In this document: piece after piece, positions 2,506-12,094 of the stretch
Layout: each line of letters opens with the position of its first letter
Position numbering within the stretch: position 1 is the first letter of the stretch
From: a virus
Lineage: Duplodnaviria > Heunggongvirae > Uroviricota > Caudoviricetes
Direction: 5' to 3' (one strand)
IMG/VR virus record: IMGVR_UViG_2802429253_000011
Length of the DNA stretch: 12,094 nucleotides
Translations under genes and position numbers: made by a program
The notes under the pieces: generated by a model
Seen by the model: the letters and a program-made list of their open reading frames with translations, nothing else
The model's database searches: none
What the model was told of the DNA's origin: nothing

Positions 2506-3177
2506 TCAGCGACCAATCACCACAATCTGGCCGCCATCCCCTTCGTCTGCCGTGCTGATCTCCTGAGAGACCACCCGCGACCCCACGCGCATTTCACCGT
2601 ACAGAACGGGCAGAACATTGCCCTGGGCAACCATGTTATCCAGTGAGGAGAAATAGGTGTTCTGTTTGCCGTTATCTGTACTTGCTGCCGTGGGCGTCCT
2701 GGCTTTCGGTGCCAGCATCTGCGCCACACCACCAAGTACCATACTGGCACCGAGAGAAAACAGGATACCGGTCATACCACCGGCCCCAATGGCTGCCCCC
2801 CATGCTGTAAGGGTGGCTCCGGCGGTAAAGAATGATCCGGCAATGGCGGCTGCTCCCAGGACAATCTGGAATACACCACCTGACTTGGCCCCGGCGACTC
2901 TGGGAACAATATGAATCACAGCGCCATCAGGCAGAGTCTCATGTAACTGCGCCGTTAATCCGGACGTGCTGACATCCTGCCCGGCAATCCGTACCTGATA
3001 CCAGCCGTCGCTCAGTTTCTGACGAAACGCCGGGAGCTGTGTGGCCAGCGCCCGGATGGCTTCGGCCCCCGTTTTCACACGCAGATCGATGCGGCGGCCA
3101 AATCGTTGTAAATCCCCGTAAAGGCAGATGCGTGCCATGCCTGGTGACGCCAGAGGGAGTGTGTGCGTCGCTGCCAT
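2506..3177 (-). CDS. Lambda tail-tip assembly protein I (gpI) homolog, 223 aa
   Basis: Translation MAATHTLPLASPGMARICLYGDLQRFGRRIDLRVKTGAEAIRALATQLPAFRQ... with a Gly/Ala-rich hydrophobic C-terminal half matches lambda gpI as recalled, nearly identical over the full length. ATG at 3175-3177, TGA at 2506-2508. Confidence 0.7.
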   Translation of the reverse strand: MAATHTLPLASPGMARICLYGDLQRFGRRIDLRVKTGAEAIRALATQLPAFRQKLSDGWYQVRIAGQDVSTSGLTAQLHETLPDGAVIHIVPRVAGAKSGGVFQIVLGAAAIAGSFFTAGATLTAWGAAIGAGGMTGILFSLGASMVLGGVAQMLAPKARTPTAASTDNGKQNTYFSSLDNMVAQGNVLPVLYGEMRVGSRVVSQEISTADEGDGGQIVVIGR

Positions 3178-3266: not shown

Positions 3267-5180
3267 TCATGCTCCATTCGATTTCAGCAATCCACGATAA
3301 TCGAGGGCCGCGACACCTGCATCTATGCGCACCTTCCAGGCGACACCATCAACAGTAAAGCCCACCTGCTCCTCAAGATATGGCGTATCCATACCATCAA
3401 GATAAGCGACTTCTATTGTGTCCATCCCCTTAGCTGCGGCTACATACCATTCCTTGCTATTGGCCTTATCAAGACGTGGCTCAACAATTACTTCTGCCAT
3501 ATCTTTCACCACGTTAATGATGCCGGGGTTCTGATTGATAGTGCCCTCATCACCAACCGGAAAGACTGATGACGATGACAGAATGGCGCGACGCGCGGCA
3601 GATTCCAGCGCGGCAGGGACCAGAACAAAAGCAGGGGTAATATTCAGTGAGTCGCCGTTAGCATCCTCCTGGAGGCGCATCAGCTTACGGGCTTCATCAA
3701 GCCCCACCATGTCCATATCCTTCGCAATAAGATTTTTATGATCGGCATGGAATAACGCTTTACCATCCGTAAACTTGCCGTTGCTGGTTAACAGGAGATA
3801 AACCAGATTGCCAACTGTTCTGGCGGCTGCGCGTCCCATCGCCATGGGGATTGTAGTTAACTGGGTCAGGTCATCGTTGATAATGGCCTGACGGGTAACG
3901 GAAAAAATATTCCCGTACGTGGCCAGCGCAATAGGTACACCTTTATCGCTGGTGGTGATGTATTTATATTCCGCACCTTCCGGTACTTTATCCAGCTTTG
4001 AAAAACCATTCAGACCAACGCGCTTTGCTTCATGAAAGTTTGAAAGCGAACCGGTACGCGTCCATTTCTGGAACGTTTCGCCGCTGTCCTGCCAGCCTTT
4101 CAGTACAGATTTTTCAGCCCCACCAGCCAGAATATGAGAAAAATCACTGCTGCTGTGTGTAAAAGCCGCATTAACAACCTGCGAGCGATTAATAAAACCA
4201 CTCACAGTGATACCACGATCAACCAGTGATGCCTGGGCCATTTCAAAAAGGCTCATCATCGCGTAAGGGTTGCCTCGTTCAGGGCGTTCATACCCAAGAC
4301 GGGAATAAAGCCCCTGACGAATTGCATCACCTGTTATGTTTCCGTTTCCGGCATAGATATGAGGCGGGGTATTTTTATTGGATGGCGTGGACTCGCGCCC
4401 CAGCTCGTTCAACAGCTTTTCACGGGCCATTTCCGGTGTACATGATGCATCTTCCAGACACGCCATTTTGATCCCGTCGTAACGACTGCCGAACAGGCTA
4501 AACACTTCACTTATTCCATTGATGCGTTTCTGTTCATTACCAGCAATATTTGCCGCTCCCTGTGGCGGTGTAATCATTCCTTTAATGGTTTCCGGCATAT
4601 GTAAAAAATCTCCTGTACGTTTCGATTCAATTCGCGCCATTGCTCTGACGGATGGCAACAATTCATCAGCAAAACCGTGCTTAAGGCATTCTTTCCCATC
4701 CATCCAGGTTTCATCCTCCAGCATGGCGGTAATTTCCTGTGCTGATTTGCCCGTTTTTCTGGCATAAGCAGGGATTAACACGGTTTCCACCTTATCCAGC
4801 AAATCAGCATAATCACGCATATCGCCAGCATTTCCGCCAGAGATCCCCCACGGTTTATGGATCATCATCATGGCGTTCTCCGGCATCACTACACGATCGC
4901 CAGCCATTGCGACCACCGAAGCCATTGAAGCCGCAACACCATCGATATAAACCGTAATGTCTGCCGGATGATTCCGTAGCAGGTTATAGATGGCGATGCC
5001 TTCAAACACATCACCACCTGGTGAATGGATCCTCAGATTGATATGTGAAACATCGCCAAGGGCTTTCAGGTCTTCCGCGAACTGCTTTGCAGTAACACCG
5101 AAGCCGCCAATCTCCTCATAGATAGATATATCCGCCGCTCCGCGAACATCCGCCGCCTTAATGGTGTACCAGCGATTCAT
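3267..5180 (-). CDS. Fusion of prohead protease (ClpP/S14-like) and HK97-fold major capsid protein, 637 aa
   Basis: N-terminus carries ClpP-like motifs (INLRIHSPGGDVFEGIAIYNLL, DGVAASMASVVAMAGD, MMMIHKPWG); the C-terminal ~400 aa has the composition and length of an HK97-family capsid protein. Start ATG 5178-5180 overlaps the upstream stop (TAATG). Confidence 0.8.
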   Translation of the reverse strand: MNRWYTIKAADVRGAADISIYEEIGGFGVTAKQFAEDLKALGDVSHINLRIHSPGGDVFEGIAIYNLLRNHPADITVYIDGVAASMASVVAMAGDRVVMPENAMMMIHKPWGISGGNAGDMRDYADLLDKVETVLIPAYARKTGKSAQEITAMLEDETWMDGKECLKHGFADELLPSVRAMARIESKRTGDFLHMPETIKGMITPPQGAANIAGNEQKRINGISEVFSLFGSRYDGIKMACLEDASCTPEMAREKLLNELGRESTPSNKNTPPHIYAGNGNITGDAIRQGLYSRLGYERPERGNPYAMMSLFEMAQASLVDRGITVSGFINRSQVVNAAFTHSSSDFSHILAGGAEKSVLKGWQDSGETFQKWTRTGSLSNFHEAKRVGLNGFSKLDKVPEGAEYKYITTSDKGVPIALATYGNIFSVTRQAIINDDLTQLTTIPMAMGRAAARTVGNLVYLLLTSNGKFTDGKALFHADHKNLIAKDMDMVGLDEARKLMRLQEDANGDSLNITPAFVLVPAALESAARRAILSSSSVFPVGDEGTINQNPGIINVVKDMAEVIVEPRLDKANSKEWYVAAAKGMDTIEVAYLDGMDTPYLEEQVGFTVDGVAWKVRIDAGVAALDYRGLLKSNGA

Positions 5181-5698: not shown

Positions 5699-5771
5699 AT
5701 GAAAATGCAAAAACCAGCCTTTTTCCGCGCCGCTCCCGCCCCGTGGCAGGTCACTACACCGGGAGGACCCA
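5699..5771. repeat. Copy B of the 73-bp direct repeat (partner at 2349-2421)
   Basis: Differs from copy A only at 5715, 5751, 5755 and 5756. Abuts the terminator at 5772-5795. Confidence 0.8.
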
Positions 5772-5795
5772 TAAAAAAGCCGGATTGCTCCGGCT
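5772..5795 (-). terminator. Intrinsic terminator ending the primase/origin transcription unit
   Basis: Stem AGCCGGA (5778-5784) / TCCGGCT (5789-5795), loop TTGC; on the minus strand it is followed by six U (complement of A5773-A5778). Confidence 0.6.
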
Positions 5796-5931: not shown

Positions 5932-6154
5932 CTGTTCACCTTTTGATATTTTCTCTTTTAATTCATAATGTTAAGGGGTGAACAGTTTCACAAAAACTAT
6001 TCACCAACTGTTCACCACTGTTCACCCTTGAAGCTCAATAAACAATCAAAAAGGTGAACAGTGAATAGTTTGGTGAACAGTTCATAAATAACTGTTCACC
6101 CTATAATATACTGATATAAAAGATATTTATGACAGGGTGAACAGTGGTGAACAG
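5932..6154. repeat. Iteron array, candidate replication origin (P4 ori/crr-like)
   Basis: Eleven copies of CTGTTCACC or its complement GGTGAACAG (two of them variants, CTATTCACC and GTGAATAG) at 5932, 5977, 5997, 6008, 6018, 6053, 6061, 6072, 6092, 6136 and 6146, in both orientations, interleaved with AT-rich tracts (5941-5974, 6101-6134). Ends 20 bp from the primase stop. TGTTCACC is the type I iteron bound by P4 alpha protein. Confidence 0.75.
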
Positions 6155-6173
6155 TTATTCCATAAGTTTAATT

Positions 6174-7985
6174 TTAGCTATCGTCATTAGTGACCGATAC
6201 ACATGATGGCATCCAGTCTTCTGATTCCTCCGTCAGTGTCACGTTTGAACGCAAACCGTGCTTCGTTTTCCGTTTCATATACTCCCTGCCATATTCCGCC
6301 ATTGCCCCCGGCATATCTTTACCGAAGCGCGTCAGTGTTACAGGTTTACCAAACCCATGTGCCCTCATATAAGCCAGATAGGCATGATAGAGATACCTGC
6401 GTGGGCTGAATGGCACAATTTCAGCATTACCCACTAACAGGCCATCACACATTACCGACGCCATGAGATAGCCGCAGAAGTCCACCAGCGAATCCCCCTC
6501 TCGCTTTATCGCCAGTGCTTCTTCAGATTTCTGCTGCTCATATAACAGGCGTCTGGCTTCGTCCTGGTCAGCAAACCGTGTAAGCAGATGGCGAATCACT
6601 ACCGCCAGCTCACCTTCTATTTTTTCCGCCAGCATTGGATCGCGTTCGTTCTCCGGTACAACTTCCGAAAAATTGAATATCACCCGACGACGTGAGATCC
6701 CCCCGCTGCGGTCACTGAATGACATGGCGTTATTGTTAACCGCCAGCACTACTGCCGGAATACGCGTTGAGTAGGGGGCTTTGTGTTTCGGGTCAATTGC
6801 CACCTTGTCACCGCCTGTAATAGCCTTAATCCCTGCCCCATCACCAGCGTAGCGGGTCATATCCGGCATGATAATCAGCGAAAAGCCAACCACTAACGCG
6901 CGTTCCCTTGCATCTTCCAGCGCCTTCATGCTTGCCGATACTGTGTTGGCCTTACCCGCCAGCATGGTGCAAATCTCCGCCATCACGCTTTTACCACTTC
7001 CCCCTGGACCTGTTACCTCAATGAATAACTGCCAGTCGTACCGGTTCGCCAGCACCATGAATAATGCAGCCAGTACGCGATCCGCCTTGCGGTCATTCTC
7101 AGCCACCGAACGGCGTAACCACTTCCAGAAATTCGGCGCATGTGTTGCCAGCGTTTCCCCCTCTGCTGGTGGGCTGAAAGGTAATTCACTGGCAATTAAC
7201 AACCAGTCGTTTTTGTTATGCTCCCGAAAATTACCTGTTCTGGTATCAAATACCCCGTTACTGAATCCAATCAGGTTACGGGCTGTATTCCCCATAACAG
7301 GCAAACTTAACTTCATGGTATCGACCGCCGATTTAATGGCGTTCTGCGAATAGCTGATCTCCGCATCAATGAAAATCTGTGCCATAGCTCGCTGTAATTC
7401 TTTATCCTGTACTGGCTCCCATACAACGCCGTTGTAATGGTGAACAGTATCAGAGTCGGCATGAATCGCCAGTTCACCGCCATAATGTGCCAGGAGAACT
7501 TCGCCGCGTTGACTTGCTCCCATCTGGTTAAGCGCCAGTGATGAAGCGTTATCGTCTTTTACCCGCTCTTTTTTCTTTACAGGCAGTTCAACTACCTTTT
7601 TCTTTTCCGCCTGCTCTGCCCGTTCACGTTCCAGATATTCGCGCCAGTTCTCCCGTTTCTGGCTGTGCATTCCTTCAGGATAATAATCAGCATCCCTGAC
7701 ACCGGCCGCTGCCAGTTTCTGCCCGATGGTATTAACAAGCCCCGGACGCAATAACCCCGCCTGATAGAGACGCACACGATAGCGTCCGTCCGGTACGATT
7801 TGCAGGTTGTCCAGTTCGGCAAGTTGTTGCTCTCCAAGCCAGACAGGAGGCACGTTATCGCCAGCCAGTCGCCCGTCCTGTTCCTGCCACTGCTTCGCAT
7901 GTGCCCACGCATCACTACCCGCAAAAATGATGACTTCCGTCATTTTGTCACGTGGCTGGTGTTTTAAATTTGGCGCTTTTTTCAT
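6174..7985 (-). CDS. P4 alpha-type primase/helicase (N-terminal primase region, SF3 helicase with Walker A GPGGSGKS)
   Basis: Long ORF with VTGPGGSGKS, followed by residues typical of the phage/plasmid primase P4-family C-terminal domain. Start assigned to ATG 7983-7985, which overlaps the upstream stop (ATGA); track start is a GTG at 8000. Iterons lie directly downstream. Confidence 0.8.
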   Translation of the reverse strand: MKKAPNLKHQPRDKMTEVIIFAGSDAWAHAKQWQEQDGRLAGDNVPPVWLGEQQLAELDNLQIVPDGRYRVRLYQAGLLRPGLVNTIGQKLAAAGVRDADYYPEGMHSQKRENWREYLERERAEQAEKKKVVELPVKKKERVKDDNASSLALNQMGASQRGEVLLAHYGGELAIHADSDTVHHYNGVVWEPVQDKELQRAMAQIFIDAEISYSQNAIKSAVDTMKLSLPVMGNTARNLIGFSNGVFDTRTGNFREHNKNDWLLIASELPFSPPAEGETLATHAPNFWKWLRRSVAENDRKADRVLAALFMVLANRYDWQLFIEVTGPGGSGKSVMAEICTMLAGKANTVSASMKALEDARERALVVGFSLIIMPDMTRYAGDGAGIKAITGGDKVAIDPKHKAPYSTRIPAVVLAVNNNAMSFSDRSGGISRRRVIFNFSEVVPENERDPMLAEKIEGELAVVIRHLLTRFADQDEARRLLYEQQKSEEALAIKREGDSLVDFCGYLMASVMCDGLLVGNAEIVPFSPRRYLYHAYLAYMRAHGFGKPVTLTRFGKDMPGAMAEYGREYMKRKTKHGLRSNVTLTEESEDWMPSCVSVTNDDS

Positions 7986-8281
7986 TTCTGCTCTCTCCAC
8001 GCGGCAATCATGTTTTTCAGTTCCTGTAGTTTTTTATCCACATTCACACGTGACACATGGTTATTTCTGGAAAGCGGGATTTCCCGCCTGAATCTGCTAA
8101 TAAAGATCTCCACGTTCAGCGAACTATGAAATGAATAGCCATCACGAATAAAATACACACGGTCAAACATTATCGATTTTACTGTTACTCTGTTGCCGTT
8201 CTTATCCCGATAAATAGCGCCGGGGATAATTTTGGGATGTGCATAACCGCTGGCAGTCAAGCCAGATAAATACGTTCTCAT
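7982..8281 (-). CDS. Hypothetical 99-aa protein, coupled to the primase
   Basis: ATG 8279-8281; stop overlaps the primase start. No family recognised. Confidence 0.5.
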   Translation of the reverse strand: MRTYLSGLTASGYAHPKIIPGAIYRDKNGNRVTVKSIMFDRVYFIRDGYSFHSSLNVEIFISRFRREIPLSRNNHVSRVNVDKKLQELKNMIAAWREQK

Positions 8282-8287
8282 GATTAT

Positions 8288-8608
8288 TTATCCCCGATTT
8301 GAATCAGTATTCGCTTTCTTTATGGCATTTAATGCATCTGTGGCATTTTCAATGGTGCACCGTAACGAAATATCAAAATGTCCAAGCATTGCCAGTAACA
8401 AACCGATATTACCCATATCAATGCGCATGGCCTTTTCGTCATAGTCCTCATTTTCTGACGCATGCCACATCAGGCTACCAATTGACGCAACGGCCATTGA
8501 TATATTGTCAGTCGCCACATCCGCAGCGGAATAAACCTTTTTAGCAATATCATGCTCACAGTTAAAATGCGGATTAATCAGGTACTGGTAATTTGACATA
8601 TCAGGCAT
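8288..8608 (-). CDS. Hypothetical 106-aa protein
   Basis: ATG 8606-8608 overlaps the upstream stop (ATGCCTGA); RBS GGGGG. Acidic protein, no family recognised. Confidence 0.5.
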   Translation of the reverse strand: MPDMSNYQYLINPHFNCEHDIAKKVYSAADVATDNISMAVASIGSLMWHASENEDYDEKAMRIDMGNIGLLLAMLGHFDISLRCTIENATDALNAIKKANTDSNRG

Positions 8609-8804
8609 GGCACACCCCCTGACGAATACGGGCGGCGAATACCATCACGCAGCCAGCCGGGGATTGCTGGCGTGCTTCCTGTTCGCTGGTGGCCACGATG
8701 GTAATCACACGCGGTTTTGCGGCGCTCAGGGCGATAAAACGCCAGGCGAATTTATTCAGGTTGTGCGAATCCCGCCCTTGCGGGTGTATGGTATGATTTC
8801 TCAT
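8601..8804 (-). CDS. Small Icd-like protein (P4-family host cell division inhibitor-like), 67 aa
   Basis: MRNHTIHPQGRDSHNLNKFAWRFIALSAAKPRVITIVATSEQEARQQSPAGCVMVFAARIRQGVCHA; ATG 8802-8804 with GAGG 6 nt upstream. The track merges it into a 334-aa ORF whose upstream part is antisense to real plus-strand genes. Family call is from memory of Icd-like annotations. Confidence 0.5.
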   Translation of the reverse strand: MRNHTIHPQGRDSHNLNKFAWRFIALSAAKPRVITIVATSEQEARQQSPAGCVMVFAARIRQGVCHA

Positions 8805-8842
8805 AGCTACCTCGATACTCTCGTTATCGTTGGTGGTTAGAA

Positions 8843-8887
8843 GCCCTGCGAGTGGTAACGACACTTGCGGGGCTTTGTTTTTTGTTG
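8843..8887 (+). terminator. Plus-strand intrinsic terminator or attenuator in the divergent control region
   Basis: 12-bp stem (8843-8854 / 8862-8873) with two G-U wobble pairs that only pair in plus-strand RNA, 7-nt loop, then UUUGUUUUUUGUUG. Confidence 0.5.
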
Positions 8888-8899
8888 CACTTACTGTTA

Positions 8900-8950
8900 A
8901 TGTACGTACGTAATATTGATGATAATAGGAGTTACGTACGTACATGTCAA
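8900..8950 (-). promoter_or_regulatory. Leftward promoter (TTGACA-17-TATTAT) overlapped by a pair of 14-bp perfect inverted repeats (operator)
   Basis: On the minus strand, -35 TTGACA is at 8950-8945 and -10 TATTAT at 8927-8922 with a 17-bp spacer. ATGTACGTACGTAA (8900-8913) and TTACGTACGTACAT (8932-8945) are exact reverse complements and flank the RBS and start codon of the RHH gene. Confidence 0.6.
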
Positions 8951-9135
8951 CATTAAAGCGGGATAAATCACCACGCGGCGAGGGATGGTCGCCGACATTC
9001 CAGATACGAATTAGCAAAGAACTACGCCAGCAAGTAAACGAGGCAGCAACCGCCGATGGCCTAACCCTCGGCAATTGGTTTAAAGAATTAGCTCGTGCCG
9101 AACTAAAGCGACGCGGCATTGAACCTAAAGGCTGA
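8944..9135 (+). CDS. Ribbon-helix-helix (Arc/CopG-like) DNA-binding protein, 63 aa
   Basis: FQIRISKELRQQVNEAATADGLTLGNWFKELARAEL has the strand-helix-helix pattern of RHH regulators. AGGAG at 8927-8931; start codon sits inside the right operator arm. Confidence 0.55.
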   Translation: MSTLKRDKSPRGEGWSPTFQIRISKELRQQVNEAATADGLTLGNWFKELARAELKRRGIEPKG

Positions 9136-9138
9136 TGT

Positions 9139-9264
9139 ATGACTGAAAAGCAGACCGATAACAAACTTTCTCTACCAGAGAATAAACCAGCAGGCTTCTT
9201 ACCAAGAAAAATCCTTGATGAGATCAAACGCCGCCAGCGGCGCAAGGCCAAAGAGCAGGAGTAA
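9139..9264 (+). CDS. Possible 41-aa basic peptide, or 5' part of an interrupted gene
   Basis: ATG 4 nt after the RHH stop; ends at TAA 9262-9264; same frame as the next ORF. Confidence 0.2.
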   Translation: MTEKQTDNKLSLPENKPAGFLPRKILDEIKRRQRRKAKEQE

Positions 9265-9321
9265 CCATCACCAGCGCCGTGGTGCGGTGAACTGTGGCGC
9301 ACAGGGTTACAGGTATCTACG

Positions 9322-9501
9322 ATGACTGACAAATCATTAAAGAAATTATCCTCATCCAAGAAAAAACAACGCAAAAATGCGGTAAACGAACATGAACCGG
9401 AGAGATTCGCACCATGTGCGTTTATCCTTGAGAAGTACCTTAAAGAGTATTCTAGGAAAATACGCTCATTGCAGGCATGGCAGCGAATCGAGCCAGACTG
9501 A
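9322..9501 (+). CDS. Possible 59-aa Lys-rich protein, or 3' part of an interrupted gene
   Basis: ATG 9322-9324 to TGA 9499-9501; in frame with 9139-9264 and no other stops between them; followed by a terminator. Confidence 0.2.
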   Translation: MTDKSLKKLSSSKKKQRKNAVNEHEPERFAPCAFILEKYLKEYSRKIRSLQAWQRIEPD

Positions 9502-9566
9502 TAGCATTGCCCACCAGCCAACAACCTGGTATTCTGGATATGCTCAAGTTTAGTGTTATGCCACTG

Positions 9567-9594
9567 GCGGCCCTCTGCGGTCGCCTTTGTTTTA
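9567..9594 (+). terminator. Intrinsic terminator of the rightward small operon
   Basis: Stem GGCGGCC (9567-9573) / GGTCGCC (9579-9585) with one G-U pair, 5-nt loop, then UUUGUUUUAUG. Confidence 0.5.
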
Positions 9595-9611
9595 TGTGCC
9601 ATCACTCCCCC

Positions 9612-9821
9612 TTACACCGTCTGCGTTCTGCGAGTGGATGCAAGATAAGCATCGAGATCAGTGCGCATATACAGCACTTTGCGCCCCAGCTTATGGAAAG
9701 GGATTTTTACCTTGCCAGTACAGGCCCAGTTCGCCAGCGTTTGATTGTTAACGCCAAGGTAGGCAGCAGCTTCAGCACGTGTAAGGCGGTCAGTTGATAA
9801 ATCAGATTTCTTTAAATTCAT
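9612..9821 (-). CDS. AlpA/Xis-family helix-turn-helix DNA-binding protein, about 69 aa
   Basis: LTRAEAAAYLGVNNQTLANWACTGKVKIPFHKLGRKVLYMRTDLDAYL fits the small AlpA/excisionase-type HTH family. ATG 9819-9821 chosen; an alternative GTG at 9830 gives 72 aa. Confidence 0.7.
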   Translation of the reverse strand: MNLKKSDLSTDRLTRAEAAAYLGVNNQTLANWACTGKVKIPFHKLGRKVLYMRTDLDAYLASTRRTQTV

Positions 9822-9882
9822 ATCTATCACCGTGTACTTCTAAGTAACAACGGTGATAAATATCAATCAATGGGTATTTTGT

Positions 9883-9968: not shown

Positions 9969-10689
9969 GGGGGTGAACAAGTTCAAACGAAGAATATTTA
10001 TCAGGTCTTGGTGGTTGTGCTCCTGATTCTTTAATCCATTTATCCAGAGTGTTTTTACTTACTTTCCCATGATAGTAAACAGAAAGCTCGTTCAATAAAC
10101 CTGTTTTACTGGCTTTAGGGTACTTTTCCCATGTTAGTTTAATTACGTGCATAACTTCATTGTAATAATGATTTCTTGGTTTGCGCGCTTTTTCTTTCTG
10201 TGATAAGGATAAAGCATCTTTTATTTTTTTATCTTTTTCATGGTTCGATATAATTTCTTCAAAAAAGTCATTAAGCAATAACTCAACACCAACCCTAGTA
10301 AGTTTGTCTGCGTGATTACGCATTCCGACATGGTACAATGCAACTGCTGAATTTAAAGTATCGACAACCTGACAAGATAGTTTACTATCAAATATTAAAA
10401 AACCACATGAATCCATTCTTATAGCTAATTCAATAGGATATTGCTCGATTTCTCTTAATTCTAAACCATAACACAAAAGAAATTCTCTTGTTGGATACTT
10501 TGATTTATAAAAATAATCTCTTATATCATCAATCAAGCGTTTTATAGCCTCTATGGTGGAGTTTTTCGGGGATAAAGATACAGGAACGTTTAAAACTGAA
10601 GAGTCTCGCCCACCAGTAATTAAATCATTCATAACCGAATAAATAATATATTGTTTGACCGATATATTGTTATCACCCATATATGTCAT
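9964..10689 (-). CDS. Hypothetical protein (238-241 aa), AT-rich, translationally coupled to the integrase
   Basis: ORF noticeably more AT-rich than its neighbours by eye. Candidate ATG at 10678-10680 overlaps the integrase stop (ATGGGTGA); track start is at 10689. No motif recognised (no Walker A, no transmembrane segment). Confidence 0.55.
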   Translation of the reverse strand: MTYMGDNNISVKQYIIYSVMNDLITGGRDSSVLNVPVSLSPKNSTIEAIKRLIDDIRDYFYKSKYPTREFLLCYGLELREIEQYPIELAIRMDSCGFLIFDSKLSCQVVDTLNSAVALYHVGMRNHADKLTRVGVELLLNDFFEEIISNHEKDKKIKDALSLSQKEKARKPRNHYYNEVMHVIKLTWEKYPKASKTGLLNELSVYYHGKVSKNTLDKWIKESGAQPPRPDKYSSFELVHPQ

Positions 10690-12094
10690 TCTTTTCTTGT
10701 ACTATAGCAAATAGTAAACGACGTTTTTCATCATCACTCATGCCCTCCAGTGCGGAAAGTAATTGCGCATCGATAGATTTTTTACTCTCCACCAGCCCGG
10801 CATGTTCCAGAATTGCCCGTTCTATCCGTGATGCTGGCTCCAGCAGTTCATCAGCACCGAAATGTAAATACCCCTGCGTTACGTCGGCACTTCGCATAGT
10901 GCGGTGATTCATCAGGCGCTTGAGGATGTAATTACCCACGCCCACCAGCTCAGCAACCGTTCCGAACGTCCGGCGTGCGTCGTGCCACTTAAACGGGACA
11001 GGGAAGAGCATTTCATCGTTCGCCTCAGGAATGGTAGCCGCGCTTATCCGGTCTATGATGTGCCGTGTCTCCTGAATCACTCCCTTCACGCCAGGAAACA
11101 CCAGCACATCATCAGCAGCTTTGTTTTTTAGCCTGCGAAGAAACATTTTCCGCAACGTATCAGTGATCGGCAGTTCAAGCGGATCCCCGTTTTTCGTGGT
11201 GTCTATCCAGAAAAAGCGACCGCCCATATTCACGCGATCCCACGTAAGGCCAAAAACTTCTGATTTCCTCAGTCCGGTAAACAGTGCCATTTCCACGGCA
11301 TCACATACCGTAACAGCTATATCATCCCTTTCCTGTTCGCCCTGGTCGCGCACAGCAGCTACAGCAGCAAACCAGCGGGGAAAATCATGCAGGCGGATAC
11401 GTTCCGTTTTTCTTACCGTTCCGTGCCACTGGCGCTTGGTGCTCAGTACCAGAGTCGGCGGATCCGGTAAAAGAGTATTACCCGCATCATCACGGTAATG
11501 ATCATGCGCAAACCGACACACAGCACGTAGCGCACGCGCCCATAAATCGGCCTGTGCCTTGCTTCCTGTACCAACCCCAGCCCGTAACGTGGTTTTATCA
11601 GCACCGAACCATACAGCCCCATCAGTGATGGCCTTATGCCGTTGTTCCACCCGTTCGCGGGAAATACTGGCGAGGGTATGGGCCATCCAGTCACCGGAAT
11701 AATTCTGTAATATGCTGCGGTACTGTTTTTCTGTGGAGGGTTTCAGGCGGTGGCCACGATTTTTTACGTAGGCGTCAATCGCCTCACTCAGCGTTATCAT
11801 GGCCTTGTTGTTAGTGCGCTTTGCTATGTTCGGATTTATCCCCGTTGTGGCGACTTCGCCAAGGAGTTCCATAGCTTTAGCCCTGGCATTATCCACGCTC
11901 AGATCAGGAAAACGCCCCAGCGTTGCACGAATAAATTTTCCGTTACGCTTACGGGAAATGCAGAAACTTTTCACACCAGACGAACCTACACGGACACGCA
12001 GCCCGTTAACCTCCGTATCACCATATTCGACCTGTCCATGTTCCGGCGTTGGCAGTTCTGCAATTTTTACTTTAGAGAATCTGAATAATTTCAC
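10673..12094 (-). CDS. Tyrosine recombinase/integrase (P4-type with N-terminal arm-binding DUF4102-like domain), 5' end at window edge
   Basis: N-terminus GLRVRVGSSGVKSFCISRKRNGKFIRATLGRFPDLSVDNARAKAMELL is typical of P4-family integrase arm domains; C-terminal HDARRT and downstream Tyr region fit the catalytic domain. The only in-window start is a GTG at 12092-12094, so the true start may lie beyond the window. Confidence 0.8.
   Translation of the reverse strand: MKLFRFSKVKIAELPTPEHGQVEYGDTEVNGLRVRVGSSGVKSFCISRKRNGKFIRATLGRFPDLSVDNARAKAMELLGEVATTGINPNIAKRTNNKAMITLSEAIDAYVKNRGHRLKPSTEKQYRSILQNYSGDWMAHTLASISRERVEQRHKAITDGAVWFGADKTTLRAGVGTGSKAQADLWARALRAVCRFAHDHYRDDAGNTLLPDPPTLVLSTKRQWHGTVRKTERIRLHDFPRWFAAVAAVRDQGEQERDDIAVTVCDAVEMALFTGLRKSEVFGLTWDRVNMGGRFFWIDTTKNGDPLELPITDTLRKMFLRRLKNKAADDVLVFPGVKGVIQETRHIIDRISAATIPEANDEMLFPVPFKWHDARRTFGTVAELVGVGNYILKRLMNHRTMRSADVTQGYLHFGADELLEPASRIERAILEHAGLVESKKSIDAQLLSALEGMSDDEKRRLLFAIVQEKNDIYG

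Follow-up and report, generated by a model that had tools for sequence, protein, structure and literature searches.

Small genes leading into the primase gene of a phage-satellite island probably form an early operon built like the left operon of P4

The left operon of satellite P4 is arranged as vis - eta/kil - epsilon - orf151 - orf106 - alpha, with alpha encoding the primase and kil nested in eta. In the portion of the work of Forti et al. (1999) that is relayed in PMC10111431, kil is described as the 3' end of eta, which is translated only from an upstream late promoter, in coupling with an alpA homologue, and whose translation prevents termination. For P4 and the phage-inducible chromosomal islands (PICIs), only Int, AlpA and Pri-Rep have been listed as common to both (PMC6092414). 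A further point of reference is RgdR (ECs1581), encoded in the cryptic prophage CP-933C/Sp7 of enterohemorrhagic Escherichia coli (EHEC) and the one studied member of the DUF4222 family (PMC3378721, PMC10877973). DNA binding and regulation of host genes, including expression of the enterocyte effacement locus (LEE) and motility, have been reported for this protein, together with an isoelectric point (pI) of 10.09 and a requirement for the RGD motif in LEE activation by some RgdR variants (PMC3378721). Here we analyzed a 12,094-nucleotide (nt) viral sequence (Caudoviricetes; IMG/VR record IMGVR_UViG_2802429253_000011), referred to below as the window, in which three small open reading frames (ORF1, ORF2 and ORF3) precede the gene of a P4-type primase. 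Our results indicate that these ORFs probably head the early/replication operon of a phage satellite of the PICI type, as its first cistrons, and that this operon is built like the left operon of P4.

A preliminary description of this sequence had proposed three small, translationally coupled ORFs of 67, 106 and 99 aa, and both its coordinates and its lengths proved exact when compared with the ORF listing and with a direct reading of the DNA; all three lie on the minus strand (Table 1). It had also stated that each start overlaps or abuts the previous stop down to the primase, which agrees with what we found at all three junctions. The start of ORF2 lies inside the tail of ORF1 (CATGCCTGA) with an overlap of 8 nt, the end of ORF1 reading GGG GTG TGC CAT GCC TGA and the ATG of ORF2 being contained in CATGCC; ORF2 and ORF3 abut, with 6 nt between the TAA of the former and the ATG of the latter; and the stop of ORF3 and the ATG of the primase at 7985 share an ATGA overlap. 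The GTG at 8000 is a mechanical ORF start only, as the ATG at 7985 is the one used by PGAP in E. coli A36 and is conserved in relatives; the primase is 603–608 aa in length. The same set of coding sequences (CDSs) is called by PGAP in E. coli A36, 06-00048, TUM1886, GF4 and EC21Z-151.

Table 1. Positions and properties of features in the window (HTH, helix-turn-helix; RHH, ribbon-helix-helix; SD, Shine-Dalgarno sequence)
Feature	Position	Strand	Properties
mug and tRNA (anticodon CAT)	809-884 (tRNA)	+	left end of window; tRNA next to mug, as for ileX
Lambda tail-assembly gpI-like gene	2506-3177		
ClpP-capsid fusion gene	3267-5180		
P4-type primase/helicase (pri-rep)	6174-7985	-	D5_N, DUF5906, Pox_D5; TIGR01613 95 bits
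ORF3	ATG 8281 to TGA 7982	-	99 aa; SD GGGGA
ORF2	ATG 8608 to TAA 8288	-	106 aa
ORF1	ATG 8804 to TGA 8601	-	67 aa; SD GAGG 6 nt upstream
Eta-like open frame	8601-9605	-	334 codons; GTG 9605 / ATG 9602; ORF1 is its 3' end
Extended -10-like element, TGGTATGAT	8789-8797	+	7 nt upstream of 5' end of two-hairpin motif; candidate antisense promoter
Two-hairpin motif	8805-8890	+	stem-loop 1, terminator hairpin 8840-8876, U-run; antisense to ORF1 leader, SD and start
Perfect 14-bp inverted repeat, ATGTACGTACGTAA / TTACGTACGTACAT	8900-8913 and 8932-8945		flanks the -10; overlaps RHH start codon
Near-consensus sigma-70 promoter, TTGACA-17-TATTAT	8922-8950	-	11/12 consensus positions; inside the long frame, toward ORF1
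Divergent RHH gene	8944-9135	+	63 aa; weak HicB/Arc/YlcI-YnfO family matches; antisense within eta-like frame
Intrinsic terminator	9566-9585 or 9566-9595	+	closes the RHH unit
alpA-like HTH_17/excisionase-family gene	9612-9830	-	PF12728 and TIGR01764; analogue of P4 vis and PICI AlpA
P4-type integrase gene	10673-12094	-	opposite end of island from tRNA

The arrangement recurs well beyond this window. Using the Icd-like profile, we retrieved 20 loci from different Enterobacterales genera and walked downstream from the stop of each Icd-like ORF, with P4 and prophage Sp7 of E. coli Sakai compared as well and with family counts made over 21 loci. In nearly every locus, and in P4 and Sp7, the gene that follows begins 8 nt (in some cases 11) before the stop of the Icd-like ORF. 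The junction carries a conserved motif, SD-CATGCnTRA. Within the last codons of the Icd-like ORF (Q-G/E-V-x-H-A) lie both the SD of the following gene (GGAGG or GGGGG) and its start codon, which makes the junction a conserved hand-over signal. From there, one to five small ORFs (56–150 aa) per locus are chained to a primase of 454–901 aa through junctions that are mostly overlaps, these being of 4 nt in 24 of about 62 cases and of 8 nt in at least 13. The small ORFs belong to about 25 unrelated families that are used combinatorially, and DUF4222 is the only one of these cassette families for which a Pfam model was found. The ORF2 family is present in 10 of the 21 loci, and the DUF4222 family in seven, where it abuts the primase (five loci) or is within one short ORF of it (the other two). 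ORF2 occupies the slot that epsilon has in P4, with the same 8-nt junction, although the two proteins are unrelated. ORF1, ORF2, ORF3 and the primase gene are thus connected through junctions of the coupling type, and different genera have conserved them. The proposal of a tightly coupled satellite operon leading into the primase gene is borne out, and in related Enterobacterales islands small genes are likewise chained to the primase.

The first cistron is a peptide of the Kil/Icd family by its profile match and alignments. ORF1 scored 66.2 bits against the NCBIfam Icd-like model NF033153 (cutoff 25), which confirms the tentative Icd-like assignment made earlier; the same model gave 52.6 bits for P1 Icd and 73.9 bits for kil, which makes up the C-terminal portion of a CDS formerly annotated in P4 as "cI protein". 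ORF1 is alignable with both P1 Icd and P4 Kil, is basic (pI 11.3), and has an SD and ATG that are conserved in the 20 loci and P4. As would be expected of a family member, it is a first cistron of 60–75 aa coupled to the next gene; it overlaps its neighbor by 8 nt, the overlap being 8 nt in P4 and 4 nt in P1. A PHROG label of "transcriptional repressor" for ORF1 was rejected; because NF033153 matches the kil part of the old P4 "cI protein" CDS, the label was probably inherited from that obsolete CDS, which covers kil. The only relative of ORF1 found by tblastn in the phage collection was in vB_KppS-Ant, a 16.5-kb capsid-forming PICI-like record, and no relatives of ORF2 or ORF3 were found there. 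Sequence searches of the PDB returned nothing for any of the three ORFs.

Several database proteins (P0001, P0003, P0016-18 and P0176) join ORF1 and ORF2 in frame, with one G fewer at 8615-8619 (a run of C on the plus strand, G5 on the coding strand). A programmed frameshift at this position was considered and rejected, since most of the assemblies behind these fusions contain further frameshifts; homopolymer errors are the probable origin. The copy of the locus in E. coli A33 is full of frameshifts.

A family can also be assigned to ORF3, contrary to the preliminary description, in which only the first ORF had a tentative one. ORF3 matched Pfam PF13973 (DUF4222) with 65.5 bits (gathering cutoff 27) and aligned end to end with RgdR/ECs1581 (33% identity, E 1e-15, both proteins being of 99 aa), and it is basic (pI 10.4). 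It is, on this homology, an RgdR/DUF4222-family protein and, like RgdR, a basic protein of about 99 aa encoded directly 5' of a P4-type primase in a satellite-like island. Profile and structure searches, which had been suggested as a check on the three ORFs, thus gave family matches for ORF1 and ORF3 and generic fold matches only for ORF2. The latter had no Pfam or NCBIfam match, phrog_15327 being its sole assignment, and when 1.8 billion representative proteins were scanned exhaustively with HMMER, this yielded 15 relatives, of which the informative ones are of 100–106 aa and 29–65% identical to it. Judged from these matches, the ORF2 family is small and confined to these operons. ORF2 is acidic (pI 4.8) and is predicted to be a helical hairpin, with helices at residues 19-51 and 58-104 in an AlphaFold2 (AF2) model built from a nine-sequence alignment (predicted local distance difference test, pLDDT, 79). 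In fold searches of the PDB and BFVD with ORF2, nothing beyond helical hairpins of a generic kind was found, all at E > 0.1 (spectrin repeat, TraM, UvsY and EsxB). Multi-repeat HMMER matches of ORF2 to a tetratricopeptide repeat (TPR) protein reflect one TPR-like helix pair and were not taken as homology.

These characteristics bear on whether ORF2 and ORF3 serve the satellite itself. They could instead be effectors directed at the helper phage or the host, as with P4 epsilon, or anti-defense proteins, in either case standing outside satellite replication and regulation, an alternative that we consider rather doubtful. The position of ORF2 in the epsilon slot behind the same junction speaks for it, as do the exchangeable, non-homologous, small, acidic and helical proteins held by that slot, which are typical of arms-race accessory genes, and the alteration of host LEE and motility expression by RgdR-family proteins (PMC3378721). 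However, ORF2 resembles epsilon neither in sequence nor by profile and has no significant fold match, the closeness of DUF4222 to the primase in all seven loci that have it points to a replication-linked role, and no helper phage is known for this island.

The view of ORF1 as a small ORF needs qualification. It stands insofar as ORF1 is a 67-aa ORF with its own SD and ATG, but ORF1 is also nested in a long eta-like frame that is coupled to alpA, the start of that frame lying 6–9 nt past the alpA stop and having an SD (TAA-GGGGGA-GTGATG). As in the nested eta/kil design of P4, the Kil-type frame is open far upstream, from alpA onward, and a promoter lies within it. The long frame of the window has 0 stops, where each of the five alternative frames has 9–22, and dinucleotide shuffling left it open in 0 of 2000 trials. 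Eleven other loci are open for 235–418 codons, their extensions upstream of the Icd-like ORF having 0 stops versus 4–22 in every other frame, and only 0–1 of 2000 dinucleotide-preserving shuffles stayed open in each of the 12 loci. The start of the long frame is coupled to an upstream same-strand ORF, either alpA-like or of ~180–290 aa, in 10 of the 12 (gaps of -20 to +8 nt); no such ORF was found upstream in L020 or L024. In none of the 12 loci does the extension have a Pfam domain, it has no alignable middle, and its composition resembles non-coding sequence. Amino-acid conservation or an excess of synonymous change is seen in it only at the overlap with the opposite-strand RHH gene, where the wobble positions of the two coincide. 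Because the frame is kept open without amino-acid conservation, we infer that eta-like translation would act to prevent Rho-dependent termination. We also considered whether the long frame might be a by-product of the opposite strand; the RHH gene, which lacks Tyr and His codons and has few for Gln, helps to keep it open, but composition-preserving shuffles almost never do so, and this explanation was rejected.

Selection to keep the long frame open could also be expected if the locus worked in the manner reported for the prophage system of ECOR61, such that a phage protein would trigger it, the Icd-like protein would kill the cell, and ORF2, ORF3 and the primase would be needed co-factors. 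In agreement with such a reading, removal of the Icd-like gene abolished the ECOR61 effect in the work of Silas et al. Nevertheless, we find it unlikely. The extension has neither a domain nor amino-acid conservation outside the RHH overlap and is non-coding-like in composition, the 67-aa form is preceded by a strong promoter as well as by an SD and ATG that are conserved, and PADLOC models for anti-phage defense had 0 matches among eight proteins.

It is highly improbable that one or more of the small ORFs is not a gene and that the apparent coupling is a by-product of a compact leader before the primase for, short as the ORFs are, and even though no curated family covers ORF2 and folding from a single sequence did not succeed, all three are kept at matching lengths across genera with conserved SDs and junctions, their frames have no internal stops (alternative frames have 2–15) and the lowest ratios of nonsynonymous to synonymous polymorphism (pN/pS), and the nine-sequence alignment gave a model of ORF2 with a pLDDT of 79.

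The interpretation of the three ORFs as the head of a P4-like operon has to be set against a number of observations that do not favor it. The junction of ORF2 and ORF3 is a gap and not an overlap. The pN/pS values of the annotated frames (0.52, 0.39 and 0.31, from comparison with a 94–97% identical E. coli relative) are based on few substitutions, 10–17 per gene. ORF2 and P4 epsilon fall in separate clusters and gave an hhalign probability of 0.2%, and a single-sequence AlphaFold prediction of the natural ORF1-ORF2 fusion P0001 was unusable (pLDDT 32). The residues FMRGDIYRD of RgdR align with IIPGAIYRD of ORF3, so that the RGD at residues 20-22 is PGA in ORF3. The eta-like frame is not universal, being short in seven of 20 loci, and in Sakai Sp7 (L025, 2147-3113) it is broken in two, ECs1576 (247 aa) being one piece and the other a frame of 98 codons that ends in the Icd-like ORF. 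Lastly, the window does not have a leader RNA of the C4/CI type as in P4 and P1. The Rfam families C4 (CI RNA) and isrK had no match in the window or in six similar loci, while P4 itself and the P4-like locus L014 each matched both; the control logic is therefore not identical to that of P4, and immunity is probably protein-based. A divergent C4 RNA was considered for the leader hairpin and rejected, as the hairpin does not have C4 architecture.

The structure that is present at the start of ORF1 is of a different kind, and we regard it as a candidate cis-antisense small RNA (sRNA) of ~85 nt covering the ORF1 translation start. Its second hairpin scores as an intrinsic terminator on the plus strand and is followed by a U-rich tail, and the other conserved stem-loop, 5' of the terminator hairpin, carries an anti-SD. 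The motif is conserved in 17 loci, with compensatory changes in 12 of 23 pairs, and the antisense strand is the more stable one in 15 of the 17 (mean -23.7 versus -18.5 kcal/mol), because its G-U pairs are C-A mismatches on the sense strand. The RNA of the window (8805-8888) folds at -38.7 kcal/mol (z = -5.9). A covariance model of the motif, R1, found 22 sites, every one at the start of an Icd-like ORF, four of them outside the set from which the model was built (L005, the second copies in L020 and L023 described below, and Sakai Sp7, at about 1597421-1597505 of NC_002695); none was found in P4, P1 or a C4-type locus. The motif is absent from Rfam, and we found no report in the literature of an antisense RNA at Icd-like genes in PICIs. 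A -10-like hexamer stands at the identical 7-nt distance in 21 of 21 aligned sites (TATGCT, TAGACT or TATGAT in other loci); the element is weak and lies within conserved codons, and the -35 is weak also. The terminator might, alternatively, serve only to shield the RHH promoter from upstream transcription.

Upstream of ORF1, the internal promoter, which is a match to consensus only, is combined with an inverted repeat that is probably the operator of the divergent RHH protein. In other loci an opposite-strand RHH gene is present at the same place, and different palindromes (e.g., GGTG-N-CACC) occupy the position of the repeat, a variety that suggests repressor-operator pairs of differing specificity. 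The reverse complement of the terminator of the RHH unit encodes the conserved "KTKAT" N-terminus of the long frame. Three plus-strand ORFs in this region (8944-9135, 9139-9264 and 9322-9501) are in one frame, the first two being split by a single stop, and the one of 41 aa is similar to the C-terminal tail that RHH proteins have in other loci; the region may hold a duplicated or decayed repressor gene. On the opposite strand in Sp7 there are an RHH gene and a homologue of the 59-aa ORF, both unannotated in the record. Second copies of the module formed by the RHH gene, the antisense motif and the Icd-like ORF were seen a few kb upstream in L020 (682-965) and L023 (1318-1583), and the one in L023, which is by another integrase, may be the remnant of a tandem island.

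Taken together, these features lead us to propose, tentatively and with less conviction than we attach to the operon itself, that the trans-acting CI/C4 RNA of P4 and P1, an immunity RNA, has been replaced in this class of satellites by a two-part gate located in the eta-like frame. The gate would consist of the RHH repressor, acting on the internal promoter, and the antisense sRNA, with ORF1 and the RNA forming a pair like a type I toxin-antitoxin system; it would control entry into the primase operon and would be overridden by alpA-driven translation of the eta-like frame. If this is true, the motif represents a new RNA family gating a toxic peptide, in a protein-plus-cis-RNA module that replaces an RNA-only immunity, and it offers a handle on the silencing of these islands, a question not yet settled for Gram-negative PICIs (PMC6092414).

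By analogy with P4 and the PICIs, only the internal promoter would reach ORF1 in the resting island, where it would be held by the RHH protein at the 14-bp repeat and possibly by the antisense RNA also. A helper phage would switch on alpA, with transcripts then entering from upstream (PMC6092414), and ribosomes would reinitiate at the eta-like start and translate as far as the ORF1 stop, protecting the RNA from Rho-dependent termination before being handed via the overlapping junctions to ORF2, ORF3 and the primase. Of the products, ORF1 may be a dose-dependent division inhibitor or killer, given its likeness to P1 Icd and P4 Kil, and ORF3 may be a small basic DNA-binding regulator or replication accessory, given its likeness to RgdR. 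ORF2 would be an exchangeable acidic helical-hairpin protein, most likely one that binds protein.

The setting of the operon is that of an island lying between tRNA ileX and nfeF. In the explanation that we favor, it is probably a PICI-type phage satellite, one that has a ClpP-capsid gene of its own in addition to int, alpA and a P4-type primase; profile searches of the window proteins also placed a DUF1441 gene between the tRNA and the integrase. The genes occur in the int, alpA, pri-rep order of Gram-negative and capsid-forming PICIs, with packaging/capsid genes and a length of ~11 kb adjoining a tRNA. Parts of the region are present in 1666 of 5426 complete E. coli genomes. E. coli A36 has the same regulatory-replication module joined to a different capsid module, and a second integrase and capsid module stand in tandem there (L001), which suggests tandem or recombined islands at the tRNA site. 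Two sets of repeats were also noted in the window. An 80-nt direct repeat, 91% identical between its copies (2349-2428 and 5699-5778, plus strand), brackets the ClpP-capsid and gpI-like genes and could represent copies of a late promoter or terminator, or the edge of an acquired block. A 21-nt repeat (TGGTGAACAGTT...) is found at 6071-6091 and 6145-6165, just 3' of the primase stop, and these copies are possible iterons of a replication origin.

For annotation, the gain is that the three ORFs can be named as a Kil/Icd-like peptide, an orphan helical cassette and an RgdR-family protein. In addition, RgdR, which is known as an EHEC virulence regulator, can now be seen in its native context, where its gene is the one nearest the primase in the early operon of a satellite. 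This context suggests that RgdR primarily has a role in the satellite and that what it does to host genes is secondary. Sp7 (OI-51), which encodes this founding member of DUF4222, is one of the closest counterparts to the window: its RgdR gene is directly 5' of the island primase, which it overlaps by ATGA, and an Icd-like ORF (ECs1577, 64.7 bits) lies upstream of it, and ECs1581/ECs1582 are arranged like ORF3 and the primase. Three cassettes of 61–80 aa separate the Icd-like ORF from the DUF4222 gene in Sp7, whereas ORF2 alone does so here.

Other known systems resemble parts of the locus. In the immI operon of P1 (c4 RNA - icd - ant1/ant2), an Icd-family first cistron is likewise coupled to the next gene, by a 4-nt overlap of icd and ant1, and Icd and ORF1 both match NF033153. 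However, an antirepressor is encoded downstream of icd, which is not so here, P1 Icd has a C-terminal tail that ORF1 does not have, and no C4 RNA was detected in the window. Type I toxin-antitoxin systems such as hok/sok share with it a peptide gene of a toxic family whose SD and start are covered by a structured RNA with a terminator on the opposite strand, a candidate in our case, as the RNA here is predicted from sequence. They differ in that ORF1 is not a membrane peptide and heads a long operon, and is not a standalone gene. The Gram-negative and capsid-forming PICIs EcCICFT073 and EcCIEDL933 have the same int/alpA/pri-rep and packaging/capsid content beside a tRNA and are also of ~11 kb, but the island described here differs from them in having no known helper phage.

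There is also a close likeness to P4. P4 differs in its CI/C4 RNA and isrK, in place of which the window has an opposite-strand RHH gene inside the long frame, and homologues of epsilon, orf151 and orf106, as well as sid, delta and psu, are absent from the island, which has a ClpP-capsid gene instead. Nevertheless, both have an alpA/vis gene followed by a long frame that ends in a Kil/Icd-like ORF of 65–67 aa with its own SD and ATG, a promoter inside that frame (the one at 8922-8950 being the analogue of P4 PLE), a small gene whose start overlaps that ORF by 8 nt, additional small genes after it and a P4-type primase. The operon design is thus one already known from the P4 left operon and the PICI early operons, with the antisense RNA as the one lead that may be new, and what the PICI-type islands of E. 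coli have in common with P4 goes beyond Int, AlpA and the primase to include the nested eta/kil frame and the conserved SD-CATGCnTRA junction.

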